Assembly (NCBI GenBank): GCA_002763265.1
Contig: PEZQ01000006.1
Location: 94,141 to 158,140, forward strand
DNA from: an archaeon CG10_big_fil_rev_8_21_14_0_10_43_11
GTDB taxonomy: Archaea > Nanobdellota > Nanobdellia > PEZQ01
Length of the DNA: 64,000 nucleotides
Direction of reading: 5' to 3'
Positions 30,076-60,022 of this stretch are shown here, piece by piece. Made by a program: the position numbers and the translations under genes. The first letter of the stretch is position 1, and every line of letters starts with the position of its first letter. Under the pieces are notes generated by a model. It saw only the letters and a program-made list of their open reading frames with translations. It did no database searches and had not been told where the DNA came from.

Positions 30076-30930
30076 TTACGCGAGACCAAATGCGCTTGCA
30101 ATCAGATTTTCGCTGTTTGTGCTCTTACCATACACGCCACGACAGAGTTTTACGCTAAAAACGCCCGCATGCTTTTCCGGGTCTTGGTTGAGTCCTGTGT
30201 TCTTTGGGTATGCAATAAACACCGGTGTCCTGCCCTGAAACGTGGTCTCAACAAAGCTTGACGAACAGCCCACATACTCCTCATACGAGCCGCCAGCCCA
30301 ATCACCGGTGTAACCAAGCACGTCAGGCTCAAACGGCGCCTTTGTAAGCCCCTCATACGACGTGAAATTATACTCTTCTCCAGTTTCCAAGTCCTTGAAC
30401 CGTGCCTCATAGGTTAAGAAGAGTCCTGAAATGCAAGGCTCGCGAGCGCACGAGACTACGCATCGGTTTGAAATGCATTGCTGGGGTCTGCCATCTCTTG
30501 ACTCCCCACAATTAATGCCCACCGCGGGTGTGAGGCCAAACAAGGAAGGTACGAGTTCTCCGCACAAGTTGAATGTTGAATCTGATGACGGAATTAATAA
30601 ATCCCACAACTCAGTGTAGCGCAAACAATTCTGGTTCCATGCATTAAAAAACTTGGTAACATCAACGAGTCCGGGATATGTTTGTGAAGTGAGACGGGAG
30701 CTCCCCTGTGCGTAATCAATGTGAAATTGTTCGTAAGCAAAGCAATTTGGACTATTAATAAAAATCTGAGAGAGCGTGTCAAGCTTTGTCTCATCAAGGG
30801 CATTTGACACTTCGAAATTCACGCCTGACGCCCTGCTAAGCACAAAAAACACGACAAGCAGCCAAATAAGCAGGTCAAGTATTTCACGAATCACATAAGG
30901 CATTACCGTGCTCATGAACTTCCTCCGCAC
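30076..30930 (-). CDS. membrane-anchored Cys-rich extracellular protein (locus 2, last gene)
   Basis: N-terminal TM anchor, 10+ Cys; 19-nt overlap with upstream gene. Confidence 0.45.
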   Translation of the reverse strand: MRRKFMSTVMPYVIREILDLLIWLLVVFFVLSRASGVNFEVSNALDETKLDTLSQIFINSPNCFAYEQFHIDYAQGSSRLTSQTYPGLVDVTKFFNAWNQNCLRYTELWDLLIPSSDSTFNLCGELVPSLFGLTPAVGINCGESRDGRPQQCISNRCVVSCAREPCISGLFLTYEARFKDLETGEEYNFTSYEGLTKAPFEPDVLGYTGDWAGGSYEEYVGCSSSFVETTFQGRTPVFIAYPKNTGLNQDPEKHAGVFSVKLCRGVYGKSTNSENLIASAFGLA

Positions 30931-33137
30931 GTTGGTGTGCGCAACGTTATCGCGTCATTTTGTATGCAACAAATCTGTCCGCCACGCGTGCAATCCGGTG
31001 TGCTCAATGCCACGTAGTCTGCGCCATCCCCCCTGCACTCTCCGCGGTCACTGCAACAACACTCCTCAATAGGTTTGCAGGCTGCAGCAACGTTTGAAAA
31101 CCCGTCAAAACTAATGGGTTCGTAACGCGCAACAGGGTCGTACTCACCAACGCACGATATGCCTTTTCCCATGTACGCGTTTGCGTTAAGCGTGCGCGCG
31201 TTATCCGTTTTGTAGTAGTCAACAAAAAACAAGTTTGAGGGCGCGCTCGTATCACCCGAGAGCGCGTCAGTAATGTCATTTACTGCAGCAAAAGCACCCA
31301 AACCATAAGGAACAAGCGCAAACGTGCCTGCAGCACGAAGCAGTCCGCGAAAGTCAACGCCAACGTCAATCACGTTTTCGATGTCCGTAATTTTAAAATC
31401 AATGTTGGTAAGGGTTTGAGACTCACCCGCAGCATTCACGCATGTTTGACCGAGCAATTCGTTCACGTCAAAACAGTACAGGTTTGTATAACCATTAATA
31501 AAATCCGCTCTGGTTTGCGCGGGAATCCCTGTCTGCGTTTGCAGCGTGCGTGCCGCAGTCATGCGGTCAGGATGTGTGCAATCATTAAAGTCAGGAACGG
31601 GATTAAGCTCATCAGTAAGCAGGATGCTAAATGTTTGACCACCAATAGTGATTTCTTCATGCGGTCCGTTTTCGTAGATAATAGCGTTTGAAATTTCTTG
31701 TTCTGATGTAAATGTTTGGGAAGCAACTTCTGTTTCAGTGCTGTCAAACACGCTTATTGTTGTGCTTTGCTCAGTGCCAAAAACCGTAACAGCGTACACG
31801 TCAGCGTTTTGATCAATGACGCAAAGACTACTAGTTATCCCTTCTTTTGAAAGCATGGATTCAGTAAAGTCTTCGCAAAACGTTGTTGCACGAAAATCAA
31901 CGCCGCAACATGCACGCGCATCACTAAAACTGCCAAGCACGTAGTCGTCAATGTTTGTTGAGTCTTTTCTTCGAATGTCAAGCCATGAATCACGACATTC
32001 TGAGAATGCAAAGTCTTCATACGCGTTGATGAGCCGCTGCACGCATAGTACTGAATCAGAGTTTTGTGGCTTGTTTATCACATAGCCGGGAAAGAGGTTG
32101 AGCGAAACCGTGACCGGGTCCGTGCTTGTGCACGCGCGCTCAAGGCCGCGCATGACTTCAAGAAGGGGGTAAGTATCGTAGAACAACTGGTCTTGGGCAA
32201 CAAGGTCTGTTGTTGTACCGTGCGAAAAGTAAGAAACGTAATCGCGATTGATGGGTATGCGATAGTCGCAAATCGCGCTGTCAGTGCATTCTGATTCTCC
32301 TGAGGGATACCAGCGACAGTTATCGTTTTGCGTGCACGCACCTTGTGATGCGTATTGCTCGCATGCTTCAAAACAGCGCGAGCCTTGGGGCTGCCAGGAA
32401 CACACCTCATCGCGAAGCTCGCACGAGCACAGGTCATCACGCACTTCGCACCCGCACCCGCTTGAAAGCCCGAGAGCAGAACAACCACACGCGTCACTCT
32501 CAACGCCTCCCGATGCGTATGTGATAAATTGAACACCTTCACATTGACCGCGCGTTTTCCCATTGTAGTCCTCACACGTTGCGTTTCGTGAAAGGCTAAT
32601 TGATGATTTAAGTGAACAGTAGCCTGCCTGTGAGTCTTGACGCCGTATTGACGGAGTTTTGATAAGCGGGTTTTCAGGCGAGAAGAGTAAGTTCTTGTTT
32701 GCGAGGTAGGTGTCAAAAATGTTGAGCGAATCCGCTGCGCCAAGAAAAACAATAGGTGATTCATAATCTTTTTGCGGGTTAAGATAGTTAACAGCCCATT
32801 TTGTGTAAAGTGGAAAATTAATGCCTGAACTTGAGAGAATCGCAGCAGACGTTGGCTGGCGCTGAAGCGTGTCAACCACGTGACCGCGATACGAGAGCGT
32901 TGTAGCATCCTCCCATTTCATGTCAGGCAGGAGGCCATGATAATAAATACTAATCTTGTCAGGAACCGTGTACGTAATCTCATACAGGCTTGCAACATCA
33001 TAAAGAAGGCTGACCATTTTTGTTTGAATGTTTGTTGCCGGGTCAAGCCCGCCAAACGAACCGTAAATGGATGCTCCCAGAACTAGTGCTGACGTGATAA
33101 TGCCACCAATGTAATAGATAAGCAATTCTTGTGCCAT
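30912..33137 (-). CDS. membrane-anchored 741-aa Cys-rich extracellular protein (locus 2)
   Basis: N-terminal hydrophobic anchor; CGC/CSC clusters; CCCSDRGECRGDG C-terminal Cys knot. Confidence 0.5.
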   Translation of the reverse strand: MAQELLIYYIGGIITSALVLGASIYGSFGGLDPATNIQTKMVSLLYDVASLYEITYTVPDKISIYYHGLLPDMKWEDATTLSYRGHVVDTLQRQPTSAAILSSSGINFPLYTKWAVNYLNPQKDYESPIVFLGAADSLNIFDTYLANKNLLFSPENPLIKTPSIRRQDSQAGYCSLKSSISLSRNATCEDYNGKTRGQCEGVQFITYASGGVESDACGCSALGLSSGCGCEVRDDLCSCELRDEVCSWQPQGSRCFEACEQYASQGACTQNDNCRWYPSGESECTDSAICDYRIPINRDYVSYFSHGTTTDLVAQDQLFYDTYPLLEVMRGLERACTSTDPVTVSLNLFPGYVINKPQNSDSVLCVQRLINAYEDFAFSECRDSWLDIRRKDSTNIDDYVLGSFSDARACCGVDFRATTFCEDFTESMLSKEGITSSLCVIDQNADVYAVTVFGTEQSTTISVFDSTETEVASQTFTSEQEISNAIIYENGPHEEITIGGQTFSILLTDELNPVPDFNDCTHPDRMTAARTLQTQTGIPAQTRADFINGYTNLYCFDVNELLGQTCVNAAGESQTLTNIDFKITDIENVIDVGVDFRGLLRAAGTFALVPYGLGAFAAVNDITDALSGDTSAPSNLFFVDYYKTDNARTLNANAYMGKGISCVGEYDPVARYEPISFDGFSNVAAACKPIEECCCSDRGECRGDGADYVALSTPDCTRGGQICCIQNDAITLRTPTCGGSS

Positions 33138-33194: not shown

Positions 33195-36100
33195 TTACAA
33201 CCATCCAAACAGGAAGTCAACAACTCCTGAAACAATATCTACGCCAATATCAACTGCATCTTCAATTGTTTGTGCAGCGCCAGTTGCAAGCGCATTTGCC
33301 GCTTCTGCGACGGTATCAACAAATTCGGCGATTTCTTCGGCAAGCACGTCCAGGTCAAACACGTAAATGACAAAGTCAACAGCGCGCTGCGCGCCGCCAA
33401 TCACGCCTTTGTCAACCAAACATACGGTCAGCTCTATTGGCTGATTTGGAAAGTGATTTTTTCCGCACGTAAGCATGTCGCCAAGCCATGCCTGCGTGAC
33501 CGGCAGCAGGTTTTGGAACCTGCCAAGGATGCAGGCAAAACTGCCTAAATAATCAGTAAACGCGCCTTCAAGCCCGCATCGCCCAAACACGGATGGAATG
33601 GAAAACGGATCAAGAAGCGAGCCGAGGAAGCACACTGCCGTGTCCCAGCGCACGCCGCACGCGTACGCAGGCGCTTCACCGCATTTGCCTTCATACTGGT
33701 TCGTGCCTGTGTTGAATTCCCATACCCAGCGCTGGCCGTGTGGACAGCAATAATATTGAGGCTCTATTTCAGGTCTTAGAGGGTCAGCATCGTACACGCT
33801 TGTTCGCCCTGCAGGACAGCACACCCCTTGTTGTGTGGTCGTGTTTGTTCGTGAGTGTTCATACCCGCTTGGACAGCAATACCTGCTTTGTCCTCCATTA
33901 ACTTGAGAGTATGATGAGCCTTCGCATGCGCAGGCATCAACGGTTTTTGCCGCAACTTCTTTGAGCAGGTTGTTGTTTTTCGCGTTTGGAATCGTGGTAA
34001 GCACGCATCCTGATTCATCTGACGCTGTGCAGCTTGGTTGACAAACCACATTACCATCATGCGTATCCGCGCCGCGCACGAGTTCTCCGCGATATTTTTG
34101 TTTGCATGAAAGGTCAGCCCAGTTCTTACAGGGGTAGACAAGTTGTTGTGCTGATTCAAAAAGCACACAGAGGGGAGTTTCCCCGGTTGCATCGCCGCGC
34201 GCCCAAAAACAATACCCCTGCTCGCCAGATGGAAGTGTGTCTCCAGTTAAGGTTTTGCAGTCCCAATCAGCAACAGTTTCTCCGCTGCGCGTTCTACACT
34301 CATTATCGGTATAGCAACGCAGGCTTGCTCCATCAAACGTGTTTTGAATTACCGGCCCAGACCATGCACAATACGTGGTGCCGTCAGCTGCCGTGTTACA
34401 GCTTGGTGTTCCTAAGAGGCCAAGGCGTGCAATGTCTTGAGGACAATCGCTTGCCGTAGTGCATGAAAGGTATTGCTCATTTTCAATTTCATCATTGTTT
34501 GGCGCAAATGACGCGTAGTCATTGTCTTTTTCAAGATAAATATCACCCGGGCAGGTGAGACATGATTCTCCCTTGTCAGAGTCTAAAAAATCGTTTCCGC
34601 ATTGCGGCCAAATATCATATGAGAGAGTTCCTGATGCTACATCCTCAAAGACTTGTACGGGAAGCACTGTGTCTTCATCCGTAGCAAACACGCCAAGGTC
34701 ATAGTAGTAGTCGTATTCGCCGCAATATGCCCATTGCAGGCTGATGTCTTCACGACACACTTGCCCGGGATTAATTGATTTTGCAACGCGCGGGCTTGGT
34801 GTTGCGTCTCGCACGCATTTTTGTTCTTCTGGAGGAAATTGACAGCAGACATTATCATTTGCTGCATCACGCTGTACTGACTGGATGTTTGGTATTTCAA
34901 TTGTGTACGCGTAGCATTCATTGTCTTCAAAAACGCACGTGCGCGTCTGGCAAGTGAAACTATTGCTTTTCTTTTCACAGCGGGTTGCTTGAACAAATGT
35001 GTCTTGTGACGCGCACTGTGCTGCGCTTGTGCCGGGTTTTTCGCATTTGAGGGTTTGAGAATTGAGAGTGTAGCCGGTTGGACACGAGTATTGCACGTCC
35101 TGCAGGTAGCAGGAATCACCATAGTATTGTTTTGAATCAGTTTCAAACGTGATGCGGAAGTTTGGCTGGTTTGATGCTGATGCAATATTTGTATTTGAGG
35201 AATCAGTAAAAAGAAATTCGTTTATTCCTTCAGGATAGAGCACAAACCGGTTATCAACAAGGTCTTCAAAGGGTTGCTGGCTCACACTCACGCTTTGAGT
35301 CGAAGCACCCGTAGTAGTATCTGCAAGGTCAAGAAGCACCTCTGGCTGTTCGTTAATATAGGTGTACACGGTTGTTGAGCGCAGGTAGTCAAGCCCTTCA
35401 ATACCATCAATTTGCAGGGTTTCAGCGCCTACGTTTCCAATAAGAATGTAGCGTACCGGCTGGTTGATAAGAATAAGATGGTCATGAGCAGAGTTGTCAA
35501 CATCATATGATGAGAATTGCCCCCAGTTCGCGTTATTTGCATTATCAATTTTTATAAACACGCCAAGACGCGTTGTTTTCCCGCTTTCGGGCGTTTTTAA
35601 GCCGGTTATGCGTATTGAAGCAATGGTTTTGAGGTTTCCGCTTGCATCAACATTGTTTGATGTGTCTATTTTTGTCCAGTGATAGAATGTTTCCTGCAAA
35701 TCAATTGTTGCACACGTGCCTCCTGCTGCGGTTCGGTATTGAGTGTATTTTTTCTGGTTTCCATTGTCATAGATGCCCGTGTTCACATCTTTGCATTCTT
35801 CAATACAGTCTGAAATGCCATTATTGTTTGCATCAATGCCTTCATCAACCGGACCGTTCTGGTTGTTGTCAAGCCCGTCGCAAATTTCTGGCGCAGTTGG
35901 ATAAATATTAGCATTAGAGTCGTCCGCGTCCCCGTCACATTCCGTGTCGTAGCCATCCCCGTCAGCATCAGTTATTACTTCACGGTACACTGAGCATGAG
36001 AGCGTCTGGCAGCCACAGGTTGAACTACACGAGTTTGAGAGGTCAGCATAGTTGCGATACGTTCCGCTGTAACACCCATCTAAGTGGTCGCACTCAGTTG

Positions 36101-36521
36101 CATCACAATCACTGTTTGAATCGCATTCTGCGCCGCAAATTCCTTCATGGCATTGGTAGGTAGCGTCGCAATTGTATTTTCCGCACAGCGCGGATTTTTG
36201 GCCGCTGCAAAGCGTGCCGTCTCCTGATTCCCACCCATCACAAACCGTTACTGACGAGTCACAGTCTTTTTCGCAGCGTATAAACGTATTTGAATAATCA
36301 TGGTTGTCACCGCAAAAAATATTTCCTCCCTTGCTGCTGCACCCGCCATCCGTACTCCCACCGGACCAGCAACATCCGTTTGATGCCCACGCATCGGTAC
36401 ATGAATTCGCATACGCGCTTTGGAGTGCGCCAAGGCTTGCAAGAACAACAATGAATATGAAAAGTGTTCGGGTTCTCATTCGCTTCCCGCACCTCCTCCT
36501 TTTTGTGTTGAAAAAACGCAT
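33195..36521 (-). CDS. 1108-aa secreted Cys/Asp-rich protein with MopE-like putative metal-binding repeat
   Basis: Sec-type signal peptide (..ALQSAYA); DADGDGYDTECDGDADDSNANIYPTAPEICDGLDNNQNG matches the DxDxDG...C.D....PGA.E.CDG.DN.C 'putative metal-binding motif' (MopE-like). Confidence 0.55.
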   Translation of the reverse strand: MRFFNTKRRRCGKRMRTRTLFIFIVVLASLGALQSAYANSCTDAWASNGCCWSGGSTDGGCSSKGGNIFCGDNHDYSNTFIRCEKDCDSSVTVCDGWESGDGTLCSGQKSALCGKYNCDATYQCHEGICGAECDSNSDCDATECDHLDGCYSGTYRNYADLSNSCSSTCGCQTLSCSVYREVITDADGDGYDTECDGDADDSNANIYPTAPEICDGLDNNQNGPVDEGIDANNNGISDCIEECKDVNTGIYDNGNQKKYTQYRTAAGGTCATIDLQETFYHWTKIDTSNNVDASGNLKTIASIRITGLKTPESGKTTRLGVFIKIDNANNANWGQFSSYDVDNSAHDHLILINQPVRYILIGNVGAETLQIDGIEGLDYLRSTTVYTYINEQPEVLLDLADTTTGASTQSVSVSQQPFEDLVDNRFVLYPEGINEFLFTDSSNTNIASASNQPNFRITFETDSKQYYGDSCYLQDVQYSCPTGYTLNSQTLKCEKPGTSAAQCASQDTFVQATRCEKKSNSFTCQTRTCVFEDNECYAYTIEIPNIQSVQRDAANDNVCCQFPPEEQKCVRDATPSPRVAKSINPGQVCREDISLQWAYCGEYDYYYDLGVFATDEDTVLPVQVFEDVASGTLSYDIWPQCGNDFLDSDKGESCLTCPGDIYLEKDNDYASFAPNNDEIENEQYLSCTTASDCPQDIARLGLLGTPSCNTAADGTTYCAWSGPVIQNTFDGASLRCYTDNECRTRSGETVADWDCKTLTGDTLPSGEQGYCFWARGDATGETPLCVLFESAQQLVYPCKNWADLSCKQKYRGELVRGADTHDGNVVCQPSCTASDESGCVLTTIPNAKNNNLLKEVAAKTVDACACEGSSYSQVNGGQSRYCCPSGYEHSRTNTTTQQGVCCPAGRTSVYDADPLRPEIEPQYYCCPHGQRWVWEFNTGTNQYEGKCGEAPAYACGVRWDTAVCFLGSLLDPFSIPSVFGRCGLEGAFTDYLGSFACILGRFQNLLPVTQAWLGDMLTCGKNHFPNQPIELTVCLVDKGVIGGAQRAVDFVIYVFDLDVLAEEIAEFVDTVAEAANALATGAAQTIEDAVDIGVDIVSGVVDFLFGWL

Positions 36522-38239
36522 TGTTGGTTTTCATTGCAGCGATACAATGTTTTTCCTTCCACACACACGTCATCGTAACAGTCACTATCAGAACAGTCCG
36601 TACCGCCCGTGCCATCATTGTCAACGCCATCATAACAAATTTGTTCTGTGCACACGCCTTGTACTGATGAACAAATAGCGCCAGTGCCGCATGAAGCCCC
36701 ACCACAATTCGGGTCAGCGCAATCAATAAGCCCATCTTTGTCATCATCCACACCATTAACGCAGTTTGATTCAGGAGGAAGCGCAGTAGCAATTTGTGAG
36801 ATAGGCTGTTTGCTTCCCGGAATAGTAAAACTGCGCTTGTCTGTTGCCATAATCGGCGCAATGTCGCTTGTTCTGATAACGCCCACGCTACCGAGGTGTG
36901 TTGATTCAAAGATTTTTGCATCAAAAGGCAATTCGGTGATGGTGATAGTTGCTGAGTCAAACCACCACGCGTAATCAGGCGTGTTTTCAAGATTGCCAAA
37001 AGAAGCATAAATCGAGGAGATGCTGCCAGCGTAATCAAGATAGGTAAAGTCTTTTTCTGTGGTTCGAGAAACAAGCGCATGGGTGGTTTCTAAATAATTG
37101 CACAGGTACGCGGGCAGAGGAGTTGCAGAATAAAAGTTACACGCGCAATTCACATTTCCTCCGCCACACGTGTTTTCAAGCGTGTTAAACTCGCAGGTGT
37201 TTTTATCACCAATAACTTCTGCGCCTTTAATGCCAAACGCCCATTTGACCGGCGTGCTCAGATATTTGACCGTGCTAATATCAGCACTGCCAAGACCCAC
37301 GCGCAAGTCAGTAAACACAACAGAATCGCCAGGCACAAGGTTTGAGTTTTGTTGTGGAATAAAATACACTACAGTATCAACCCCTGCGCGCACGGGTTGT
37401 GTGATGTCGAGTATAATCGTGTTTCCTTTATCCTGATTGAATGACTGGCACATAACGGTCTCACCAGCGCGTGTGACGTGCACATGTTTTCCAGTCATGC
37501 ATGAGTCACAGGATGCATCATTTGTTCCGTCGCACAAGCCAATACGATATTGTTGTGAGCTTTCAATATTAACTGAACCAATACTTACCACAAAACTAAA
37601 GCCGTTTCGAAACGAGGGTACGCGCACGCTAAGCCGTCCGTTAAGAACAGCCCAGTTAGAATATGGTGAGAGCGGGATAGTTGCAGGATATGATTCAAAC
37701 ACATACTCATCTTCATAGCGAAACCGCGCACCATCCCAATAAAATAGTAGTTCGGGTGTTGTTGCTTGTGCGTCATCAAGAAATGTTGTGTGCACATATG
37801 ATTCTTCAACAGAAAACACGTCCCTGCATTGCCCGGGGCATTCTGCAAACGCGCGGGGAAGTGAGCAGTAGTCGCCTTTGCATTTGCACACGTTTGCGTA
37901 TGTGACACTTGATGCTTGTGAATAACAGATATAAAAGTTTTCAAATGAGTCGCAGGTCGTATCAGAACTGCACGTCCCTGCAAAGCAGTCCGCACAGGTT
38001 TGGTCATTTTCAGTTATCGCACAAATCGTGTTGTAGTCGCATTGTGTGCAGTCTTGTGAGCATGTTTGCGGGTTTTCATTGTATTCACACACGCCGTTTC
38101 CGCACGAATTTGAAAGCGCGCATTGCGCTCCTGACTCGCCGCTTGTACACCACCCGTCTGTTGATGAAAAGAGCGCGTGCGTTCCTGAAATGCTTACGAG
38201 TAAGCCAAGAACAGTGAGGACAAGCAGGACGGGTTTCAT
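36476..38239 (-). CDS. 587-aa secreted Cys-rich protein with C-terminal C.DG.D.D.DG..DC repeats
   Basis: Sec signal peptide; CVNGVDDDKDGLIDCADPNCG and CYDGVDNDGTGGTDCSDSDC repeats. Confidence 0.5.
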   Translation of the reverse strand: MKPVLLVLTVLGLLVSISGTHALFSSTDGWCTSGESGAQCALSNSCGNGVCEYNENPQTCSQDCTQCDYNTICAITENDQTCADCFAGTCSSDTTCDSFENFYICYSQASSVTYANVCKCKGDYCSLPRAFAECPGQCRDVFSVEESYVHTTFLDDAQATTPELLFYWDGARFRYEDEYVFESYPATIPLSPYSNWAVLNGRLSVRVPSFRNGFSFVVSIGSVNIESSQQYRIGLCDGTNDASCDSCMTGKHVHVTRAGETVMCQSFNQDKGNTIILDITQPVRAGVDTVVYFIPQQNSNLVPGDSVVFTDLRVGLGSADISTVKYLSTPVKWAFGIKGAEVIGDKNTCEFNTLENTCGGGNVNCACNFYSATPLPAYLCNYLETTHALVSRTTEKDFTYLDYAGSISSIYASFGNLENTPDYAWWFDSATITITELPFDAKIFESTHLGSVGVIRTSDIAPIMATDKRSFTIPGSKQPISQIATALPPESNCVNGVDDDKDGLIDCADPNCGGASCGTGAICSSVQGVCTEQICYDGVDNDGTGGTDCSDSDCYDDVCVEGKTLYRCNENQQCVFSTQKGGGAGSE

Positions 38240-41001: not shown

Positions 41002-41073
41002 GACGTTTAAACTCCCCTGTTTTTATGTGCTACTCATAGTGAAGGTGTTCTGTTAATATAAGATTTCTTAAAG

Positions 41074-41805
41074 TCAAGATGCGCAGCATTGAAAACCAGT
41101 TCCGCAGCTTGGTTCAAGCACGCTCACACCCTCATCACAGGACGGCCTGCACATCCCGCCCGCGCTGTTGCACGCGCGTGCATCTCCGCCCCCAAGAAAC
41201 AAACAGCATGAAAGAGATGCGTCATCGCAGTAGTTTGCATTCTTTCCTAGTTGATATTCAAAATTGCCGCACTGTGGTTTACATTCCCCGCTTTTTTGAT
41301 TTTCGCAAAACGTGATTTTGTCTTGTCCAATTTGCACAAATATTACATCATACACACCGCTTCCGCCTATGGTTTTTGGATGGTAAATAGTTGAATTACA
41401 CTGCATTATTACTTGTCGTATGCCCAAATCACGCAGGCAGGGCACAACTTCGCTTTCGGTTCCAGAACATATGCCAATATAGAGGTCTTCAGACTCAAAT
41501 GCGCGAAGCGCATCTTGAGAGAATCCAAATTCGCGTTCAAGCGTATCAATATTATAGAATTGTATGAGTTGATTTGCAGACCTACTATCAGGAAGGTCGC
41601 TTCGCACTGAATAATCGGTTCCTACAATATTAAACAATAGATTTGAACACATCGCAGCAGTGCGCGCTTGTTCAAGCGAGAGAACACCTTGAAGGGTGAA
41701 TTCACCAATAACAAATTCAGTTACAAGAATGCCGCCAAGAGCAAGAATGATATTAAACAATATTGCAAGGCTGCCAATGAGAAGCGCTCCTTTTTTGTCT
41801 ATCAT
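41074..41805 (-). CDS. 243-aa Cys-rich protein with class III signal peptide
   Basis: MIDKKG|ALLIGSLAILFNIILAL. Confidence 0.5.
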   Translation of the reverse strand: MIDKKGALLIGSLAILFNIILALGGILVTEFVIGEFTLQGVLSLEQARTAAMCSNLLFNIVGTDYSVRSDLPDSRSANQLIQFYNIDTLEREFGFSQDALRAFESEDLYIGICSGTESEVVPCLRDLGIRQVIMQCNSTIYHPKTIGGSGVYDVIFVQIGQDKITFCENQKSGECKPQCGNFEYQLGKNANYCDDASLSCCLFLGGGDARACNSAGGMCRPSCDEGVSVLEPSCGTGFQCCAS

Positions 41806-44184: not shown

Positions 44185-44187
44185 CCA

Positions 44188-46103: not shown

Positions 46104-46292
46104 TTAAATCAGGCTGCCCGCGCCCTGCTGTATTGTTTCATTGACAATGTCAACAATGCGTCCTGCCTGACTTGCCTGGCTTTGTTGTGCAACAAACGCA
46201 AGAACAAGCAAAGTAAGCAAAACAAACAGTCCAAGCAGGATGAGCGCGATAGTGTTAATATCAACTGCTTTTTTGGTTAGTTTTGGCAACAA
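46104..46292 (-). CDS. 62-aa single-TM protein
   Basis: basic N-term then TM helix; 16-nt overlap with downstream gene. Confidence 0.35.
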   Translation of the reverse strand: MLPKLTKKAVDINTIALILLGLFVLLTLLVLAFVAQQSQASQAGRIVDIVNETIQQGAGSLI

Positions 46293-46942: not shown

Positions 46943-47085
46943 AGTATGTTTGCTCCTGCATCAACAAGGTCTTGTATGAGGTCAGGAAGGTTTCTTCCAA
47001 GCGTAATAACAAGCAGTACAAACACGACAAATAAGAAAATAAGAAACACCCATACCAGTATTTGGTTTGTCACTCCCCGCTTCAT
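46939..47085 (-). CDS. 48-aa pilin-like micro-protein (KRG|VTNQ..), absent from ORF track
   Basis: MKRGVTNQILVWVFLIFLFVVFVLLVITLGRNLPDLIQDLVDAGANIL translated by hand; its TGA stop overlaps the ATG of the downstream gene (ATGA). Confidence 0.45.
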   Translation of the reverse strand: MKRGVTNQILVWVFLIFLFVVFVLLVITLGRNLPDLIQDLVDAGANIL

Positions 47086-50433: not shown

Positions 50434-50586
50434 TTATGAAAATATGTTAACAAGCCGGAGTGCATCATCTGCAAACGAGCCGAGCACACCAGTTTGCCAC
50501 ATAATAACAAAGCCAATAATAACCCCAATCACAATAAGCGTGATAAGAATGCCGGTTACAAGGTCAAATTCCGCGTGCGTGTTCAT
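50434..50586 (-). CDS. 50-aa single-TM micro-protein, absent from ORF track
   Basis: MNTHAEFDLVTGILITLIVIGVIIGFVIMWQTGVLGSFADDALRLVNIFS; its ATG overlaps the TGA stop of the upstream 819-aa gene (ATGA). Confidence 0.4.
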   Translation of the reverse strand: MNTHAEFDLVTGILITLIVIGVIIGFVIMWQTGVLGSFADDALRLVNIFS

Positions 50587-53042: not shown

Positions 53043-54096
53043 GCCAGCACGTCACCCCATTTTCAGCAGTTTGCCCGCACGTGAAACCTGCAAGCGAACA
53101 TTCAAGACTGCCAGTTCGCCATCCTGCATCAACGCAGACTGGTTCTTCTGTTGGCGGGGCTTCATTTGCTTCTTTTGCCCGATAGGTAAGGTATTGTTTT
53201 ATGAGTTTAGCAAGGTTTTGTTGCGTGAGTTCAAGAAGCATGCTTACGCTTCTTACACCGTGCAGGGAATCGCCCGTGAGCGTAATAGTGTTATATGTTG
53301 CAAATGAGTGTTCAGCTGTTTCAACAAGCATGCACAACGACCCGTCACAAGTGGTGCGCGCTACCTTAAGATTTGAAAAATAAGGTGAACCAAACGCAGC
53401 AAATACTGCACCAAGAGCTGCTTCATGGTTTGTTTTATCAAGCAGGATGTTGTAGCCAATCACTTCAAAATCATCATAATACACAGTTAAAAGAAACGCG
53501 TCTGCTTGGAATGAAAAACCAAAATAAGGCGTTGTCACGAGGCTTGGCTTTGCCTGTTCAAGACCAAAATGCGAAGCAATGCTTTGTGCTTGCGCTTCAA
53601 ATGCATTAAAATCGTATGTGTATTGTTTTTCATAAAACGAGAGTTCCACTGCAGGAATGTATTGTACTTCCTGTTCAAGGCGTAATTCGCGTTCTTGTCC
53701 CTGCTCGTCAAAATAGGTGATGGTCTTATTTTCTTCGTTAACAAACACGCTCCCGTTTGTTGCATAGATGTTTTGTTCTTGTTCAAAAGAGGTGATAAGC
53801 TCATTTGTGGTGTAATTAAAGGATACGAGCATAGTTGATTCAAAAAGCGCTTTGTGGTCTCTATACAAATCCACAACCGCCATGTTAAGCGCGTCACGCT
53901 GCGGAGGTGTTGCTATAAGTGTGATACTCTTATTTGCAGACAGGTCTTTTCCTGGAACAAGAAAAGAAAGTTCTTGTTCAAAAAATATAGCGTCATTGCT
54001 CACTGGAGGAAGTGCTTGTCTGCCAAAAAAGAAGATGCCAAAAATGCCTATAACAATTAGGACGCCAGCAGTAAAAAAAAAGGTGTGGGGTCTCAT
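53035..54096 (-). CDS. 353-aa N-anchored extracellular protein
   Basis: N-terminal TM helix, C-terminal Cys cluster; 8-nt overlap upstream, 4-nt downstream. Confidence 0.45.
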   Translation of the reverse strand: MRPHTFFFTAGVLIVIGIFGIFFFGRQALPPVSNDAIFFEQELSFLVPGKDLSANKSITLIATPPQRDALNMAVVDLYRDHKALFESTMLVSFNYTTNELITSFEQEQNIYATNGSVFVNEENKTITYFDEQGQERELRLEQEVQYIPAVELSFYEKQYTYDFNAFEAQAQSIASHFGLEQAKPSLVTTPYFGFSFQADAFLLTVYYDDFEVIGYNILLDKTNHEAALGAVFAAFGSPYFSNLKVARTTCDGSLCMLVETAEHSFATYNTITLTGDSLHGVRSVSMLLELTQQNLAKLIKQYLTYRAKEANEAPPTEEPVCVDAGWRTGSLECSLAGFTCGQTAENGVTCWRE

Positions 54097-55682
54097 GCGT
54101 CACCTCGCCTTGGCGTGTCAACGCTTAATCTGCCAAGCTCAGAGTATACCGGGATAACAAAGAGGTTTTGCGTGCTCTCAAGTCTTTCAAAAGATTTGTA
54201 CACATTTGCTTCTTGACCCGTGACACTGATGCTCGCGCGCGCAGTTACCCTATCTGATGAGTAGGTGCATCCGTCTTCAGGGTCGCATGAAATAGCCGTG
54301 TAGCCAATACCGTCCACATCTTGAAGCGAACACAAAACCGTGCGCGTTTGTCCTGCAGGAACGCTCACACTTCCATCACACAAGAGAATTTCTTGCGGTG
54401 TTGGGTCAGTGACGTGTTCAATGACTTGCGCGTAAAGCGTATAATCTACAGGTTTTTCAAGGTCACCATTGTTTTGAATATCAAAAGAGTATGTTGCGTA
54501 GTACTGTGTCGGGTGGTTTGTAACCATAAGTGAGCCTCTTCTCATGCTCACATTGATGAATTCAAATGCATAGAAGGTTTCTTTGCTGAGCATGTTGTCA
54601 AGCGCGTTTTCATCAGCACTGTCTGTTTCAAGGTCGTTGCCATTAAGCGTGCCATCACCATCAATATCCTCATCAAGGATGTTTGCAATCCCATCAGCAT
54701 CATCATCTTGTTGGGCTTGCGCAAGTGTGATAAACTGGTCAGGCCGCGAGTCACCATCAAGGTCAGGGTCATGAATGTCAAGAATGCCGTCCCCGTCCGT
54801 GTCTTTGGTTGAAAGGTCAGTGCGGATAAATTGGATTGATGCGCTTATGTTTCCGTTTTGTGTTAGAATTGAATACGGGTAGTCAATGCCATTTGATTGC
54901 CTGACAAGACGGCATGACACGTCTTGGTTGCTGTTTTCTTCAACGTACGCGAGTGTTTCTCTGCAAAACACGCATGCACCGGTTTGCGCGTCAGGGTTTT
55001 GGCACGCATTATTTATTGCAGAAACAGCGTAGGCAATGTCATTGACAAGAAAGCGATTTTGAATACTTGCGGTGATTGTGGGATTGTTCACATCCTCATT
55101 AAAATTGATTCCTGTTACGCGAACATTATACGGTTTTTTTGCACAAAACAGGTCTTGGTCTTGAGAGAGAAGGGGATAGACCTGCACAATTTCATCAACG
55201 TCGCTTGAAACATCTGCTTTATAGGTGGTAATGTGCAAGTGAAAATCGCCTACACATTCAGAATAGAGAGGTAATTCACATGCGTAGTTTGCAAAGCTTC
55301 CTGCAGGGACTGTTTTTTGTTCAGTGCAACCAGGATAGGCAAAGCTTTTGTCTTGCTTGAAATTGCTTACAAACGCGCTGAGAATGGGCGCAAGATTTTC
55401 CCGTTCATTATAATTACATATTTCAACGCGCAGGACGCCGCGTCCTTCATCACTCAATGAGGTTGGTTCACGCGTGACTTCAATAAAGGGTGTAGAGCAA
55501 TTCACAATTCTTGAAAACCCCGCGGCTTCCTGAAAGTTTATGCCAACAGCAATTGCTTCGCCAGTAGGGCTTCTTGAAGATTGTGAAAAAATGAATCCTG
55601 AAAGAAGAAGCACTACTGGTGCAAGAAGGAGAAGAAAACCAATAAGTGCAAGAATCAGTTTAAGCTGTCCTTTTGAATTCAT
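54093..55682 (-). CDS. ~530-aa protein with class III signal peptide and thrombospondin-type-3-like Ca-binding Asp repeats
   Basis: MNSKG|QLKLILALIGFLLLLAPVVLLL; DTDGDGILDIHDPDLDGDSRPD...DDDADGIANILDEDIDGDGTLNGNDLETD. Confidence 0.5.
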   Translation of the reverse strand: MNSKGQLKLILALIGFLLLLAPVVLLLSGFIFSQSSRSPTGEAIAVGINFQEAAGFSRIVNCSTPFIEVTREPTSLSDEGRGVLRVEICNYNERENLAPILSAFVSNFKQDKSFAYPGCTEQKTVPAGSFANYACELPLYSECVGDFHLHITTYKADVSSDVDEIVQVYPLLSQDQDLFCAKKPYNVRVTGINFNEDVNNPTITASIQNRFLVNDIAYAVSAINNACQNPDAQTGACVFCRETLAYVEENSNQDVSCRLVRQSNGIDYPYSILTQNGNISASIQFIRTDLSTKDTDGDGILDIHDPDLDGDSRPDQFITLAQAQQDDDADGIANILDEDIDGDGTLNGNDLETDSADENALDNMLSKETFYAFEFINVSMRRGSLMVTNHPTQYYATYSFDIQNNGDLEKPVDYTLYAQVIEHVTDPTPQEILLCDGSVSVPAGQTRTVLCSLQDVDGIGYTAISCDPEDGCTYSSDRVTARASISVTGQEANVYKSFERLESTQNLFVIPVYSELGRLSVDTPRRGDA

Positions 55683-55683: not shown

Positions 55684-57747
55684 TTATGTCCCCCCAATAG
55701 TAAGCGCAAAGCGCGTAAGACCGCCAAACAAGATGGTCACGCCAAGTGTTACAAATGTGTATACAATGGTGCCCATCATAAGTGTTTTGCCAACTTTTTG
55801 TTTTTGCTTAATAGGGTCTCCGGCAAATTCAACTTGCGAGGCAAGATACATCATAAGAATAACCACCTCAATAAAGTAGATGCCCACAATAAGCTGGAAT
55901 GTGGTGAGAGGTATGGCATCTTTTACGTTAAACAAGCCAATAGACCAGACCGAAGACAATCCAAAACCGCCTTCTGAAGCTGCGGCCTGGCTTTCAAGTT
56001 GTTCCATTTGCAGGTTCATGCTGGTAAGAATCATCATAATCATGCTGGTAAGACCAACAACAATTCCTGAAATCATAGGCGCAACAATGCTTGACTCAAA
56101 TGAAAGGCTTGAGAGGGTTTCTGAGAGCACATCTTTGATTTTTTCAGTAATAGTATGCACGTTTGAAAGGTATCGCGAAACATTTGAAAGCGACGACGCA
56201 GCGATTTCAAGACTTTTTTCAGCACCCTGAATCATAATTTTCATAGCCGCAGAAACAAGGTGCGACGGGTAGTAAACGAGCGCGCCAAGTTTTGAATCAA
56301 AAATTGCCTGTTCAGCACCCATGCCCAGTCTTTGCATGTTATCAACCATTTTATAGAAGAAACTGGCAGACTCCGAGCCTTTCATGCTTTCTGCAACTTT
56401 AAGTGCGGCAAGTTCAACGGGGAATCCTTCACTAATACGGTTTGCAAGCTGAAATGCCGTGTTTGCAAACTGGGATTCAAGGTTTTCAATTTCTTCACGC
56501 AATTTAAGACGCTGAAATGAAGTAAGATAGGTGTAAAAAAATATCGAAAGCGCGGTTCCCACAATAGGTAAAAGCGTGATGTACACATCCCACTCTGAAG
56601 GTATTCCACCAAAGGGATTGATAAAAAGATAGACAAGATAGGGTATAACCGCTGTTGCAAAAACAATAAGAGAGATAGGAAGAGCCGGCAGGCTGACGCG
56701 TTTTTTTCCAAGGGTGATAAAAAACCAGCCGGGTTTTGGTACAAGAGGATGGTGAGAAATGTCAGGATATGAAAACGCAATGGGCCTGTTTGCAAGGGTT
56801 CGCTGTATCATAAAAAACACGCCAAGCGGGAGCAGGAAATTGTAGAGAATAATAAGCGCGCGTGAGCTAATGAGTTCTGAGAGAAACGCACCAATAATAG
56901 GCAGCGTGATAAGTCCAAAAATAGGCAAGCTGATACCAAGCATATAAATTCCTTCAATCGGGTTTTTGAGCGCGTTAGAATAGTGCACCATGGTCTCAAG
57001 CGTGCCCTGCAGGATTCGGTCAAGCGCTTTTTCTAAAAGTCCAAGGCGTTTCTCATCTGATACTTGATACATGCTAGAGGTTACGAGAAACACAGAATCA
57101 ACAAATTCAGGATTGGTTTCTTTCCATTGATTAACATACACGTCAAGGGCTTCTTTGACGGTCATATATTTTTTTGACTCAACATCCCACAAGATTTTTT
57201 TAAAATCGTTTGCAAGCGGTCCTTCCAAGTTTTCAGCAACAAAACGAAGCGCTCCTTCAAGGTTTGCAGTGTGGCGCATAAAAATAACCATGTAGAGAAT
57301 TGCCATGACCAGTTCTGTTGAACTTTTGAGCTTGCGCGCTTTGACCTTGTTTGTTGGGTAATTACGAAAATATGAGTACAAACCAAAGGTGAGAGCAAGG
57401 CCCAACAGGAATACCATAATTGAAAAGGTGAGCACAAAAACAACTGCTGAAATAGCGAGTCCAAGAACAATTGCAACAACAGAAGTAGTCATGACTTGTT
57501 GTGGCGTGATGCGAAGTCCAAGCGTGTCAATGCTTTCTTGCAGGCTTTGCTCGTCTTTTTTTGACACGCTCATAGAAAAGAGCTTTCCAACCCTGCGGTA
57601 AATGATTTCAACACGCGTAAGACCCTCAGTTTCCGCTCGTTGAAATTCTTTATAGTAGTAAGATGAGGCGCGTTGTGCTTTTGTTTCATCTTGGGTTGCG
57701 CGCTTTAGATTAAGTTCTTTTTTGAGTTCCTGTTCATCAAGTTCCAT
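55684..57747 (-). CDS. FlaJ/TadC-like polytopic membrane platform protein, locus 2
   Basis: ~690 aa, two helical cytoplasmic domains plus 9 or more TM helices; start set at MELDEQ giving an 11-nt overlap with the ATPase gene (same as locus 1). Confidence 0.65.
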   Translation of the reverse strand: MELDEQELKKELNLKRATQDETKAQRASSYYYKEFQRAETEGLTRVEIIYRRVGKLFSMSVSKKDEQSLQESIDTLGLRITPQQVMTTSVVAIVLGLAISAVVFVLTFSIMVFLLGLALTFGLYSYFRNYPTNKVKARKLKSSTELVMAILYMVIFMRHTANLEGALRFVAENLEGPLANDFKKILWDVESKKYMTVKEALDVYVNQWKETNPEFVDSVFLVTSSMYQVSDEKRLGLLEKALDRILQGTLETMVHYSNALKNPIEGIYMLGISLPIFGLITLPIIGAFLSELISSRALIILYNFLLPLGVFFMIQRTLANRPIAFSYPDISHHPLVPKPGWFFITLGKKRVSLPALPISLIVFATAVIPYLVYLFINPFGGIPSEWDVYITLLPIVGTALSIFFYTYLTSFQRLKLREEIENLESQFANTAFQLANRISEGFPVELAALKVAESMKGSESASFFYKMVDNMQRLGMGAEQAIFDSKLGALVYYPSHLVSAAMKIMIQGAEKSLEIAASSLSNVSRYLSNVHTITEKIKDVLSETLSSLSFESSIVAPMISGIVVGLTSMIMMILTSMNLQMEQLESQAAASEGGFGLSSVWSIGLFNVKDAIPLTTFQLIVGIYFIEVVILMMYLASQVEFAGDPIKQKQKVGKTLMMGTIVYTFVTLGVTILFGGLTRFALTIGGT

Positions 57748-60022
57748 GTTTTTTGAGTTTTGCCTTAAGCCAGATTTCGTATTCCAAGAGCACGCGTTTT
57801 GGCGTGGCATATCCCTGCTTTTGAGCGATGCGTTCGCTTACGCGATGAAATGCTTCATTTGAGGGAATGACAAAATCAGCTTCAAGAAGGTCAGGTCTCT
57901 TGAGTTTTTTTGCGTAATCAGTAATGAGTTTCATAATGTTTGCGCGCAATTCAATGTTCTCATACACGCGGTCCCAGTTCCCTGCCCATTCCTTGACGCG
58001 TCCTGCAATTGATTTGAGCACGTCACTTTCTCCTTCCACAAGCGCAGATGTGGGGATGAGCTGGTCTTTTCGCGCGTCATATTCCATGAGCGTGACAAAT
58101 CCTCGTTCAGCAACAGGGTCTTGCTCCCACTCCTTTCGCACTTCAGTAATGCTTGTGATGCGACGATATTCGTGCAAACCGTCAGGGCTTCGCAGCTTGT
58201 TTGCAAGAACAATAATATCAGTTGCTTTGAAACTGGTTCGCGGCACGCCAAGATCGTTTACCACGCGGTCAAAAATACCGTACGGCGAGTCGCCGTGAAT
58301 AGTTCCTGCAACCACATTTGCAAGCGCGCCAACACGCATTGCTTCATAGAGCGCGAGCGCTTCAGTAGAGCGCACTTCACCTACAATCAGTGCTGAATCC
58401 CCAAGGCGAAGCGTGGTGCGAATACCATCTGCTGCTGAAAGCTCATTTTGCTCGCCAAGAATCGCGCTTCGCACTTTGATTGGAACAATATCATAACCAA
58501 ATTCCTGAAGAGCAGTCACCGGTAGTTCAAGGGTGTCTTCTACGGTGATGATACGATATTTTCGCATGATTTGCACAAGCAGTGAGCCAAGAAAAGAAGA
58601 TTTTCCTGAACCGCGGGTTCCTGCAACAAGCATGGTGCGCGCGCCGTCAACAAGAAACCATAAGAGCCCTGATGCAAGGGGTGTGAGCATTTTGTAGCTT
58701 GTAAAAAGCGGAAGTGTCCATGGCTTTGGCCGGTGCTGTCTAAATGCGTAGGCGTAGCCCTTTGGTGAGAGAGGCGACTGGATGACGGCAACACGCGCGC
58801 GGGCGTGGGGAAGCGAGAGTTCTGTGTCAAGAACAGGGTGAGATTCATCAAGGGGTCTTCCGCTAAGCATTCTAAAACGTGATGTCCAGGAACGCACGTC
58901 ATTGATGTTTGGCAGAATGTTTGTATTCATTTCACCATACTTGTTATGCGTGACAATAATGGGTACGCGCCCAACAGGAGGGTTGACATAAATGTTTTCA
59001 ATATCGCGGTCAAGAAGCAGGACTTCAACAAGTCCAAAACCAACGGTGAGACGCACAAGGATTTCTGCAAGTTTTTCAATGCGTTCATATTTAATTTTTG
59101 CGCCGCGCGATTCAGCTATTTGTTCGAGCAGGTCTTTTGCAACGTTGAAAAAGACTTCGCGCATTCGTTTTGGGTCAACAAATTCTTCTTTTCGCGGTTT
59201 GTGTTTTGAGAGGATTTCACGCGCCTTGGTGAGAAGCGAGTACTCCTCATCATTGAGTTTGAACTCAAGAGGACGCACGTGATACATCGGCTTGACTTGG
59301 TTTGGTGTTTCGTAAATAGTAACATCAACATCTTCGTGCGGTTTGTAAATGTCTAGTTCCCGCGCGCCAGCAGGAGGCTGGCTCATAAGGCGCGTGTACA
59401 TAAAGTTTGGTTTGATGTGCGGTTCAAACAAAACGCGATACACACTTCGGTCTCCAACCTTGTATCCTGCAAGATATTTGTCACTTTTTTTGATGAGTTG
59501 CGTTTTTTCAAGCTTGTCAATAATAGTTTTGAGACGTGCCATGTATTCATGGACTGCTTTTTTCTTGTACGGGTCTTTTACATCGTCTACTTCAACTTTT
59601 TTGAGACGGTGCGTTCGAAGCGCAGTAAGATATGCACCAACCGGATCGCGTTTTAAAAGTTCTAAAATGATGTGGCGAAGAGTAATAAGCGCGCTAGAAA
59701 GCACATCCTCTTGGGCTGCGTTTTCAGCAAGAGGGAGTTTGAGGATTTCATCTTCTTTGATGAGTTTTATGTACACATTTCTAAGCTCGTTTAAAAGCAG
59801 GGCTTGATCGTAGGGATACACATAGTTTCGTTCTTCTGAAAGAATAATGTTTGTTACTTCACCAACTTCAATAAGCGTGTCCATAACCGTGCCCAGGCAC
59901 AGTTCATTATCTTCAAGAGAGGGGTAGGAATGAGTTTGTGTGTAATCAAGCACGAGATTTTTATCAGCACCTTCTCGTTCGATTTTGAACGGTACACCAT
60001 TTTGTTTCTGATTCTCGACCAT
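57737..60022 (-). CDS. type IV filament assembly ATPase (FlaI/TadA/VirB11 family) with ~330-aa N-terminal and C-terminal extensions, locus 2
   Basis: Walker A GTRGSGKSS, Asp box IITVEDTLEL, His box GTIHG; paralogous to the 5440-7191 product. Confidence 0.8.
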   Translation of the reverse strand: MVENQKQNGVPFKIEREGADKNLVLDYTQTHSYPSLEDNELCLGTVMDTLIEVGEVTNIILSEERNYVYPYDQALLLNELRNVYIKLIKEDEILKLPLAENAAQEDVLSSALITLRHIILELLKRDPVGAYLTALRTHRLKKVEVDDVKDPYKKKAVHEYMARLKTIIDKLEKTQLIKKSDKYLAGYKVGDRSVYRVLFEPHIKPNFMYTRLMSQPPAGARELDIYKPHEDVDVTIYETPNQVKPMYHVRPLEFKLNDEEYSLLTKAREILSKHKPRKEEFVDPKRMREVFFNVAKDLLEQIAESRGAKIKYERIEKLAEILVRLTVGFGLVEVLLLDRDIENIYVNPPVGRVPIIVTHNKYGEMNTNILPNINDVRSWTSRFRMLSGRPLDESHPVLDTELSLPHARARVAVIQSPLSPKGYAYAFRQHRPKPWTLPLFTSYKMLTPLASGLLWFLVDGARTMLVAGTRGSGKSSFLGSLLVQIMRKYRIITVEDTLELPVTALQEFGYDIVPIKVRSAILGEQNELSAADGIRTTLRLGDSALIVGEVRSTEALALYEAMRVGALANVVAGTIHGDSPYGIFDRVVNDLGVPRTSFKATDIIVLANKLRSPDGLHEYRRITSITEVRKEWEQDPVAERGFVTLMEYDARKDQLIPTSALVEGESDVLKSIAGRVKEWAGNWDRVYENIELRANIMKLITDYAKKLKRPDLLEADFVIPSNEAFHRVSERIAQKQGYATPKRVLLEYEIWLKAKLKKHGT

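Follow-up and report, generated by a model that had tools for sequence, protein, structure and literature searches.

Comparison With Described Type IV Filaments

The archaeal type IV filament (TFF) machinery described as system 2, or Makarova clade 2 with subclade 4F, has an ATPase with an extended N-terminal and sometimes an additional C-terminal region, and a single platform gene (10.64898/2026.04.22.720090; PMC4858521), and the locus analyzed here has the same two features. It lies in a stretch of 64,000 nucleotides (nt) of contig PEZQ01000006.1 (hereafter the window; positions are counted from its first letter) that belongs to an uncultivated groundwater archaeon of the DPANN group, recorded at NCBI as "archaeon CG10_big_fil_rev_8_21_14_0_10_43_11." The locus is a pilus-type gene train of ~30 kb, an unbroken series of open reading frames (ORFs) on the minus strand from 60022 to 30076, composed of the ATPase gene g01, the platform gene g02 and 23 further co-directional genes (~25 genes in 30 kb; Table 1). 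According to our analysis, this train probably encodes the archaeon's main type IV filament (pilus). An earlier annotation made from the DNA sequence alone (the sequence-only reading) had already noticed the uninterrupted minus-strand train, which was confirmed, and had not recognized it as a described system. The latter point is not supported, as the general architecture is on record for archaeal system 2 and related clades (10.64898/2026.04.22.720090; PMC4858521), and pilins with grafted modules are on record for bacteria (PMC8179133).

Judged by description, the likeness to system 2 extends further: both have several pilins, some with a clear class III signal peptide (SPIII) motif and some without, as well as additional membrane proteins and large proteins of adhesin type. 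In the 2016 census, several clades have extracellular Cys-rich components, cytoplasmic partners with coiled coils, and large proteins with signal peptides that are described as adhesins or minor pilins, and the cognate pilins for one ATPase clade were not found in nanoarchaea (PMC4858521). On the other hand, system 2 is known mainly from Euryarchaeota and Halobacteria, whereas the train belongs to a DPANN archaeon and differs in having ~25 genes, ~15 class III proteins, pilins outside the known families, three mini-pilins of ~50 amino acids (aa) and pilins with a six-Cys knot.

The Epd pilus of Methanococcus maripaludis (system 1) is encoded by 11 genes that form one transcription unit and are all needed for piliation (10.64898/2026.04.22.720090). 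Like the train, the Epd cluster is co-directional and multi-genic, and it encodes several minor pilins as well as SPIII proteins that are large or adhesin-like; it differs in a platform split into two genes, the peptidase EppA within the cluster and DUF361-type pilins. The train, in contrast, encodes its platform in one gene, has no match to the Pfam family Class_IIIsignal and probably has several promoters, and the window yielded no peptidase.

Modular pilins are widespread in bacteria, including the candidate phyla radiation (CPR), an example being PilB of Streptococcus sanguinis (Raynaud et al., 2021, PMC8179133). In these proteins, a bulky module that the fiber presents is grafted behind a class III signal and an N-terminal pilin module; the g18-type proteins of the train may follow the same principle, but their putative modules are Cys-rich and without a recognizable domain, whereas the bacterial ones are vWA or lectin modules. 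The overlapping block g15–g18 resembles, moreover, a minor-pilin priming set (compare the minor-pilin tip complex with PilY1). Some likeness to Tad/Flp pili is seen in the matches of g01 to CpaF and TadA, in a platform homologue named TadB and in ORFs of 48–62 aa, which fall in the Flp size range; however, the train differs from them in the absence of any Pfam match to Flp_Fap or TadE and of a secretin or other Tad components, in its archaeal host, and in scores far below the cut-offs.

Neither archaellin (PF01917, Arch_flagellin) nor Fla accessory families were found among the train products, and the FlaI equivalog scored far below its cut-off (see below). The archaellum was rejected on these grounds, in agreement with the sequence-only reading, which had taken the locus for type IV filament-like and not for an archaellum. 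The NCBI entries for the train proteins read "hypothetical protein COT72_03375 / _03335 / _03290," and homologous loci are likewise annotated only as "hypothetical," not as a characterized system. Overall, the general kind of machine is already known and the train is an unusually large form of it; what is new are the DPANN lineage, the scale, the unrecognized pilin families, the mini-pilins, the Cys-knot pilins and a very narrow family of giant proteins.

The Assembly Motor

The product of g01, a secretion ATPase of the hexameric type, matches Pfam T2SSE (PF00437; E = 1.4e-18) and the TadA model (2e-31), and its closest solved structures are A. fulgidus GspE 2oap (1.3e-25), CpaF (4.9e-22) and FlaI (1.2e-17). 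A Walker A motif, GTRGSGKS at residue 468, is followed by the boxes ITVEDTLE, ALIVGEVR and GTIHG, as read from the sequence; g01 provides in this way the ATPase with intact nucleotide-binding motifs that a TFF requires. The FlaI model NF058587 covers only residues 225–702 of g01, at 131.9 bits against a cut-off of 550. The ~220 extra N-terminal and ~60 extra C-terminal residues outside this match are therefore real extensions, and g01 is not an archaellum FlaI; the sequence-only description of an N- and C-extended FlaI/VirB11-family ATPase was correct.

In a scan restricted to one genome per GTDB species, 244 relatives of g01 were obtained and 80 were kept. The latter are 49–55% identical to g01 over residues ~12–758, and all of them come from Woesearchaeota/Nanoarchaeia-type metagenome-assembled genomes (MAGs), some of the records bearing a loose "Methanosarcinales" label. 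This distribution places the host in DPANN, in accordance with the NCBI record and with the earlier suggestion of a DPANN-like genome. The N-terminal domain of the ATPase (59870–60022; ..REGE(E/D)..L......PS(L/I)ED..) carries four Cys, including a CxxC, in 9 of the 80 relatives and one Cys in g01; the Cys-bearing form recalls the variable Cys-rich N-domain of the clade 4F ATPases (PMC4858521).

The g01 protein resembles CpaF/TadA and GspE no less than FlaI, and Sec-signal giants are encoded together with it, which could be taken to indicate a machine for secretion or uptake, i.e., a piston like that of the type II secretion system (T2SS) releasing the Sec-exported giants, or a competence-like DNA-uptake pilus. 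We regard such a machine as highly improbable. A single-membrane cell needs no piston to release Sec substrates, an outer membrane or a secretin is not expected and none was found, and no ComEC, Ced- or Ted-like genes are present among the products. Ced/Ted-type DNA transport was also rejected as a candidate in its own right, its defining components being absent from the train products.

The sequence of g02 has no match in Pfam, NCBIfam or PDB, and a profile of 46 g02 homologues likewise gave no match to PDB sequences. The earlier assignment of a FlaJ/TadC-like platform, which the sequence of g02 itself does not bear out in these searches, is upheld by its ~8 hydrophobic segments, its homologues and its fold. 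Per-member Pfam scans matched 4 of the 46 homologues to PF00482 (T2SSF; best 6.8e-7), one homologue being named TadB by JGI, and the predicted fold of g02 (pLDDT, the predicted local distance difference test, 85) resembles the cytoplasmic domains of EpsF, OutF and PilC. From its homologues and predicted fold, we accept g02 as a very divergent platform protein of the GspF/PilC/TadC/FlaJ family. The platform of this family that a TFF requires beside its ATPase is, by the same evidence, supplied by g02.

Class III Signals and Small Pilins

A strict test for class III signals, [KR][GA] followed by a hydrophobic stretch, was applied to the window ORFs of both strands. It selected 10 minus-strand ORFs, all of them confined to 38239–47085, whereas the plus strand yielded the two pilins of a second pilus-like locus (see below) and one spurious ORF. 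Comparison with orthologues adds five class III proteins, namely g03, g08, g09, g17 and g05b (TKG/D and KKG/V in relatives of g05b; here and below, a slash follows the [KR][GA] of the signal). The motif test and the orthologues together provide the class III-signal subunits of a TFF. In total, the 23 downstream products consist of ~15 of pilin type (class III), three of Sec type (g05, g19, and g20) and five with plain N-terminal anchors (g04, g06, g07, g21, and g22). The sequence-only count of about 22 pilin-signal proteins was accordingly too high, while the very large proteins with pilin-type N-termini that it had reported are indeed present.

The most conserved secreted product is g09 (67–78% identity to its orthologues), for which a word-indexed homologue search returned two relatives only, not enough to predict a structure well. 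Pilins of the g09 type (…QG LP/S I/L N F I V…) are tandemly duplicated in more distant relatives (L094 and L095), which fits g09 as a candidate major pilin. The paralogy of g10–g14 is evident from a common KG/FTFxQ N-terminus, a hydrophobic helix with TQ at its end, and a linker rich in Gly, Ser and Ala. Four of these five proteins (g10–g13) and g17 (41074–41805) carry a C-terminal six-Cys unit, C-x6-C-x3-C-x9/11-C-x6-CC, and g08 and g21 end in a similar ...CC. This Cys spacing is typical of beta-defensins. The Pfam defensin models gave only sub-threshold matches (E 0.006–0.6), which reflect the spacing of the Cys residues and are not taken as homology.

Three apparent gaps in the train, of 155, 177 and 226 nt, hold the conserved ORFs g05b, g07b and g08b of 48–62 aa, which the sequence-only reading had overlooked and which raise the number of downstream genes from 20 to 23. 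They consist of little beyond a class III-type leader and one helix (the N-terminus is MKRG/VTNQILVW... in g07b and ..KKA/VDINTIAL... in g08b), they are present in related genomes, and similar ORFs of 45–62 aa occur in other DPANN trains. For the g08b peptide, the frame just upstream in two relatives (…ILLSKLNKKG…) contains no Met or Val codon and hence no obvious canonical start; TTG starts were not scanned there.

Cysteine-Rich and Giant Proteins

The Cys-rich character attributed to the products was clearly confirmed: Cys makes up 5.28% of g03–g22, compared with 0.79% of 33 other window ORFs. The number of Cys is even in 19 of the 20 proteins g03–g22, and 360 of the 413 Cys of the train are matched by a Cys in orthologues, the overall identity of which is only 30–68%. 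Each of these 20 larger products has exactly one hydrophobic segment, which is N-terminal, in keeping with the earlier view that the products are secreted or membrane-anchored. As judged from these sequence features, g03–g22 are real, folded and disulfide-bonded extracellular proteins, and the downstream products as a whole are extracytoplasmic and disulfide-rich by the same measures. Elsewhere in the window, a CcdA/DsbD-like protein recognized by eye (Table 1) adjoins a membrane-anchored AhpC/TSA-redoxin/thioredoxin-like protein (1.6e-18). This pair is possibly an extracytoplasmic thiol-disulfide system, which would be consistent with a Cys-rich secretome.

The MopE motif family PF11617 (cut-off 27 bits) matches g05 in three stretches (1.8e-16, 60.5 bits) and g20 (7.5e-8, 32.9 bits). 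At the C-terminus of g19, two MopE-like motifs were seen by eye (CVNGVDDDKDGLIDCADPNC and CYDGVDNDGTGGTDCSDSDC), Pfam giving no match at E ≤ 0.01. The MopE-like repeats that the sequence-only reading had assigned to all three Sec giants are consequently supported by Pfam for the proteins of 819 and 1108 aa, and for that of 587 aa by inspection only. MopE itself (2vov) matches g05 weakly (E = 0.067). The putative metal binding of g05, g19 and g20 derives solely from the name of the Pfam motif, and this name is no evidence of copper binding, so that "metal-binding" was an overstatement.

Searches of PDB sequences with g18, g20 and g21 gave no match. A word-indexed search with g18 found a single homologue, and 11 proteins at E ≤ 1e-3 came out of an exhaustive HMMER pass through 1.84 billion cluster representatives. 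Most alignments within this family begin at residues 2–14, and the six relatives inspected (786–1274 aa) have a common [KR]G/Q N-terminus and a conserved region of the first ~300 residues, with invariant positions that include Y41, E53, K56, E62-R63 and G78-G79. Toward the Cys-rich C-termini, the sequences can hardly be aligned or are unrelated. This architecture makes g18 a candidate modular minor pilin. The structure prediction called for by the sequence-only reading gave, for g18, an AlphaFold2 model from 11 sequences with a pLDDT of 46; only an N-terminal helix pair and one beta-sheet reached 60–77, a modest confidence.

The many large and diverse class III proteins, together with the MopE-type motifs, which hint at metal or ligand binding, might also be expected in a bindosome- or pseudopilus-like assembly, short and cell-proximal, that anchors large binding or scavenging proteins, as has been proposed for the sugar-binding proteins of Sulfolobus and for SPIII binding proteins in many archaea. 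According to a recent proposal, TFF machineries become "functionalised" through binding proteins that carry an SPIII (10.64898/2026.04.22.720090). For the present train we consider this explanation quite improbable: no substrate-binding-protein domain was found in any product, the BasE model reached 66.4 bits against a cut-off of 1000, and nine small pilins, several of them with promoter-like boxes, are a better fit for a real filament. The Sulfolobus bindosome (Bas) proper was rejected on the first two of these grounds.

Gene Order, Promoters and Conservation

The junctions from g01 through g07 measure, in order, -11, 1, -4, -8, -4, 6, and 23 nt (negative values are overlaps). Further overlaps link g07b-g08-g08b, g15-g16-g17 (ATGA), g18-g19-g20 and g21-g22. 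The train also contains spacers of 33–75 nt, and TATA-like hexamers were found at -42 to -20 of g07b, g09, g11, g12 and g13, i.e., before 5 of the 25 start codons, as compared with 2% of 20-nt windows of the train. The box of g09 is kept in three of three genomes, and those of g12 and g13 in the one relative examined. Since such boxes precede five genes of the pilin cluster, the train probably comprises several transcription units, a motor-proximal operon g01–g07 and separately promoted pilin genes, as is usual for abundant pilins. The sequence-only statement that there is no room for internal promoters was incorrect, and a single polycistronic transcript is unlikely.

In GCA_053534155.1 (JAIYLT010000015.1), the order is kept gene for gene through to the next FKBP gene, with one extra short pilin, and the ATPase and the platform protein are 79 and 74% identical, respectively. 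A third genome (Logan SRR22388187) has g01–g09 on one contig and g15–g22 on another. The synteny proposed as a check was thus found, as the whole order in the first of these genomes and as two pieces in the second. In relatives whose platform proteins are 41 and 38% identical, the latter labelled Parvarchaeota, the ATPase-platform pair is also followed by long co-directional trains that include mini-pilins of 49–62 aa and tandem g09-type pilins. Across relatives, the identity of the secreted genes is 20–68%, compared with 71–79% for the motor, and at the sequence level the secreted genes are evolving much faster than the motor.

The contig L093, which bears a g18 homologue of 28% identity, has a train followed by Alba, FKBP, FtsZ, NusG, L11, L1, L10 and L12. 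The conservation of this neighborhood in so distant a relative indicates that the locus is old and vertically inherited, and not a recent island. The neighborhood of FKBP26, FtsZ, NusG/Spt5, L11, L1, L10 and L12 is alike at 22117–30039 of the window and at 14997–21580 of L093. The somewhat higher GC content of the train (0.45–0.50) suggested recent horizontal acquisition; this was rejected, since the position and order of the train are kept in relatives.

The picture in Woesearchaeota at large is different. Where at least 5 kb is available 3' of the platform gene, at least two class III ORFs lie within 8 kb in only 3 of 35 loci, and the loci without adjacent pilins have housekeeping genes directly 3' of the platform. 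With tblastn, all 22 train proteins were compared with 80 Woesearchaeota loci; only the ATPase and the platform were matched, plus g09 in two loci, so that a wide synteny is not traceable by sequence. An upstream module of five genes (Table 1), which lies beyond the stretch delimited by the sequence-only reading and for which no Pfam family was matched, recurs in the same arrangement beside the ATPase in many Woesearchaeota loci, and by this recurrence it is probably an unrecognized part of the machine.

These observations bring up the explanation that the ATPase-platform core, with the upstream genes, merely stands beside a separate, lineage-specific island of surface proteins, the giants being general envelope proteins. 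It would agree with the core lacking adjacent pilins in 32 of the 35 loci, with the conservation of the upstream module together with the core, with TATA-like boxes inside the train, with the 8 of 23 products that are Sec-type or plain-anchored, and with the position beside FKBP, FtsZ and ribosomal genes, which is kept even in the distant relative. Nevertheless, we judge it unlikely. A class III protein and a Sec giant are among the products of g01–g07, genes that overlap or are separated by no more than 23 nt; the order of ATPase, platform and train is found in all tested relatives with a platform at least 38% identical; and pilins depend on a motor of this kind, the one further motor in the window having two pilins of its own.

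Proposed Mechanism

We prefer to read the train as a pilus locus because of the ATPase motifs, the fold and homologues of the platform protein, the concentrated and conserved class III motifs, the tight junctions and the synteny, and further because of the enrichment, parity and conservation of Cys, the architecture of the g18 family, the TATA-like boxes before pilin genes, and the published analogues. Several points weigh against it. Searched by Pfam and for the GxGD motif, the polytopic ORFs of the 64-kb window yielded no class III signal peptidase; the sequence-only reading had noted the same, together with the lack of archaellum accessory genes, which were likewise absent from the train proteins and from these polytopic ORFs. 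No Pfam or NCBIfam pilin model matches any train pilin, even though ten pilin-type ORFs were tried in Pfam at E ≤ 10, and the pilin status of these proteins rests on the N-terminal motif and the context. Eight of the 23 downstream products are not of pilin type, and the low-confidence model of g18 does not show the fold of a pilin or of an adhesin. Finally, the frequency of Woesearchaeota ATPase-platform pairs without adjacent pilins (32 of 35) means that the linkage is lineage-specific.

In the pilus that we propose, a class III signal peptidase, which we infer to be encoded elsewhere, would cleave after [KR]-[GA]. The ATPase and the platform would then pull the small pilins out of the membrane and polymerize them through their N-terminal helices into a fiber. 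The shaft would be formed by g09 and/or the FTFxQ paralogues g10–g14, several of them with TATA-like promoters of their own, and the products of g15–g18 (whose genes overlap or abut), g03 and g08 would be low-abundance minor pilins that prime or cap the fiber. The g18 family would present a variable binding module, as in the bacterial modular pilins. The Sec giants g05, g19 and g20 and the anchored proteins g04, g06, g07, g21 and g22 would be surface or accessory proteins expressed together with the pilus, perhaps adhesins outside the pilin class or envelope components through which the fiber can pass. By analogy with described filaments, the role of the pilus is likely to be attachment to surfaces or host cells. 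Most of what the sequence-only reading observed holds, with the corrections noted, and its interpretation has support in part, the display of the giants on a fiber being a presumption.

Inventory and Neighboring Genes

The features of the train, of the upstream module and of the remaining loci mentioned are listed in Table 1. The window DNA is also contained in a metagenomic contig of 162,878 bp (ENA ERZ27293400 k141_1235413) and, likewise, in JGI 3300004208. The housekeeping genes of the window are archaeal and include GMP synthase, an archaeal-type phosphoglycerate mutase, AlaRS, FtsZ, FKBP26 and the L11-L1-L10-L12 block.

Table 1. Coordinates of the gene train and of other features of the window (strand +/-; a slash in a peptide follows the class III-type [KR][GA]).
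Feature	Position	Strand	Description
g01	57737-60022	-	secretion/assembly ATPase, 761 aa
g02	55684-57747	-	polytopic platform protein, very divergent, 687 aa; its first 11 nt are shared with the end of g01
g03	54093-55682	-	class III-signal protein, 529 aa (MNSKG/QLKL...), 14 Cys; L086 orthologue VNKKG/QLEL, 14/14 Cys kept
g04	53035-54096	-	N-terminally anchored protein, 353 aa, 6 Cys; ATGA overlap with g03
g05	50583-53042	-	Sec-signal protein, 819 aa, 74 Cys (74/74 kept in orthologue); three MopE-type PF11617 motifs
g05b	50434-50586	-	single-helix ORF, 50 aa, conserved; MNTHA here, MNTKG/ or MNKKG/ in relatives
g06	48961-50427	-	N-terminally anchored protein, 488 aa, 10 Cys
g07	47120-48937	-	N-terminally anchored protein, 605 aa, 20 Cys
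g07b	46939-47085	-	mini-pilin, 48 aa (MKRG/VTNQILVWVFLIFLF...); ATGA overlap with g08; TATA-like box upstream; kept in L089 and L088
g08	46277-46942	-	class III-type protein, 221 aa (MKRKA/SFFIE; relatives MRKKG/S.., MNKG/A..), 18 Cys
g08b	46104-46292	-	mini-pilin, 62 aa (..LTKKA/VDINTIALILLGLF..); TTG start within the 3' end of g08; peptide kept in L089 and L088
g09	45610-46050	-	pilin, 146 aa (MNTRG/QGLSLNFIV...), 6 Cys
g10-g14	45319-45600, 44838-45266, 44497-44784, 44188-44463, 43921-44181	-	five paralogous short pilins, 86-142 aa
g15-g17	41074-43885	-	class III proteins, 320, 374 and 243 aa (KRG/VDT, KRG/FVSLE, KKG/ALL); ATGA-joined
g18	38239-40998	-	class III protein, 919 aa (MSRRG/QIIAS...), 50 Cys
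g19	36476-38239	-	Sec-signal Cys-rich giant, 587 aa; MopE-like motifs
g20	33195-36521	-	Sec-signal Cys-rich giant, 1108 aa; PF11617
g21	30912-33137	-	N-terminally anchored Cys-rich protein, 741 aa; kept in L089 and L091
g22	30076-30915	-	N-terminally anchored Cys-rich protein, 279 aa, last of the train; kept in L089 and L091
Upstream module, genes 1-2	60148-60612, 60657-61505	+	coiled-coil, cytoplasmic; divergently oriented
Upstream module, genes 3-5	61545-62120, 62124-62747, 62748-63317	-	paralogous polytopic membrane genes, ~190 aa
Second pilus-like locus	5440-9910	+	minimal; ATPase of 583 aa, platform of 609 aa, two pilins
Low-GC block	14000-22000		GC 0.36-0.40
CcdA/DsbD-like protein with its redoxin-like neighbor	15297-16615	-	CcdA/DsbD-like protein: six transmembrane segments, two Cys (FFAPCAF...), without Pfam match

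A second, minimal pilus-like locus lies on the plus strand of the window. Its ATPase matches T2SSE (8.9e-21) and is 43% identical to g01; its platform protein has ~8 transmembrane segments, no Pfam match, and 23% identity to g02; and its pilins begin with MNKKG/IEGL... and MNRKG/VEGL.... At least two TFF machines are hence encoded in this genome. A block of low GC content (elsewhere 0.42–0.50) contains RadC (8.3e-45) and several small unannotated ORFs on the minus strand.

Implications for DPANN Archaea

Little has been learned about the means by which DPANN archaea find their hosts and stay attached to them, and most DPANN members cannot be cultured; the locus is a concrete and conserved candidate for the apparatus concerned. 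Its motor is widespread in Woesearchaeota, and its ~15 pilin-type and ~8 other disulfide-rich proteins are lineage-specific. The surface proteins diverge far faster than the motor, as is expected of recognition molecules. The range of pilins would be widened by the mini-pilins of ~50 aa, the Cys-knot pilins and a family of ~900–1300 aa with a pilin signal. As these pilins are invisible to current models, TFF censuses probably under-count the systems of DPANN. In practical terms, the train offers a target list for metaproteomics, metatranscriptomics and electron cryo-tomography (cryo-ET) of groundwater DPANN.

A further-reading proposal, which we put forward tentatively and regard as doubtful, is that the train represents a DPANN-specific filament subtype. 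Its shaft would be built of minimal pilins (an N-terminal helix with a six-Cys knot of ~30 residues and beta-defensin-like spacing, or a helix alone of ~48 aa), and its tip would consist of hypervariable giant modular pilins with associated Cys-rich giants, which would set the choice of host or surface. If this is true, the archaeon would devote ~30 kb of a small genome to a dedicated and fast-diversifying organelle of host recognition, the pilins of which have no family-level match.

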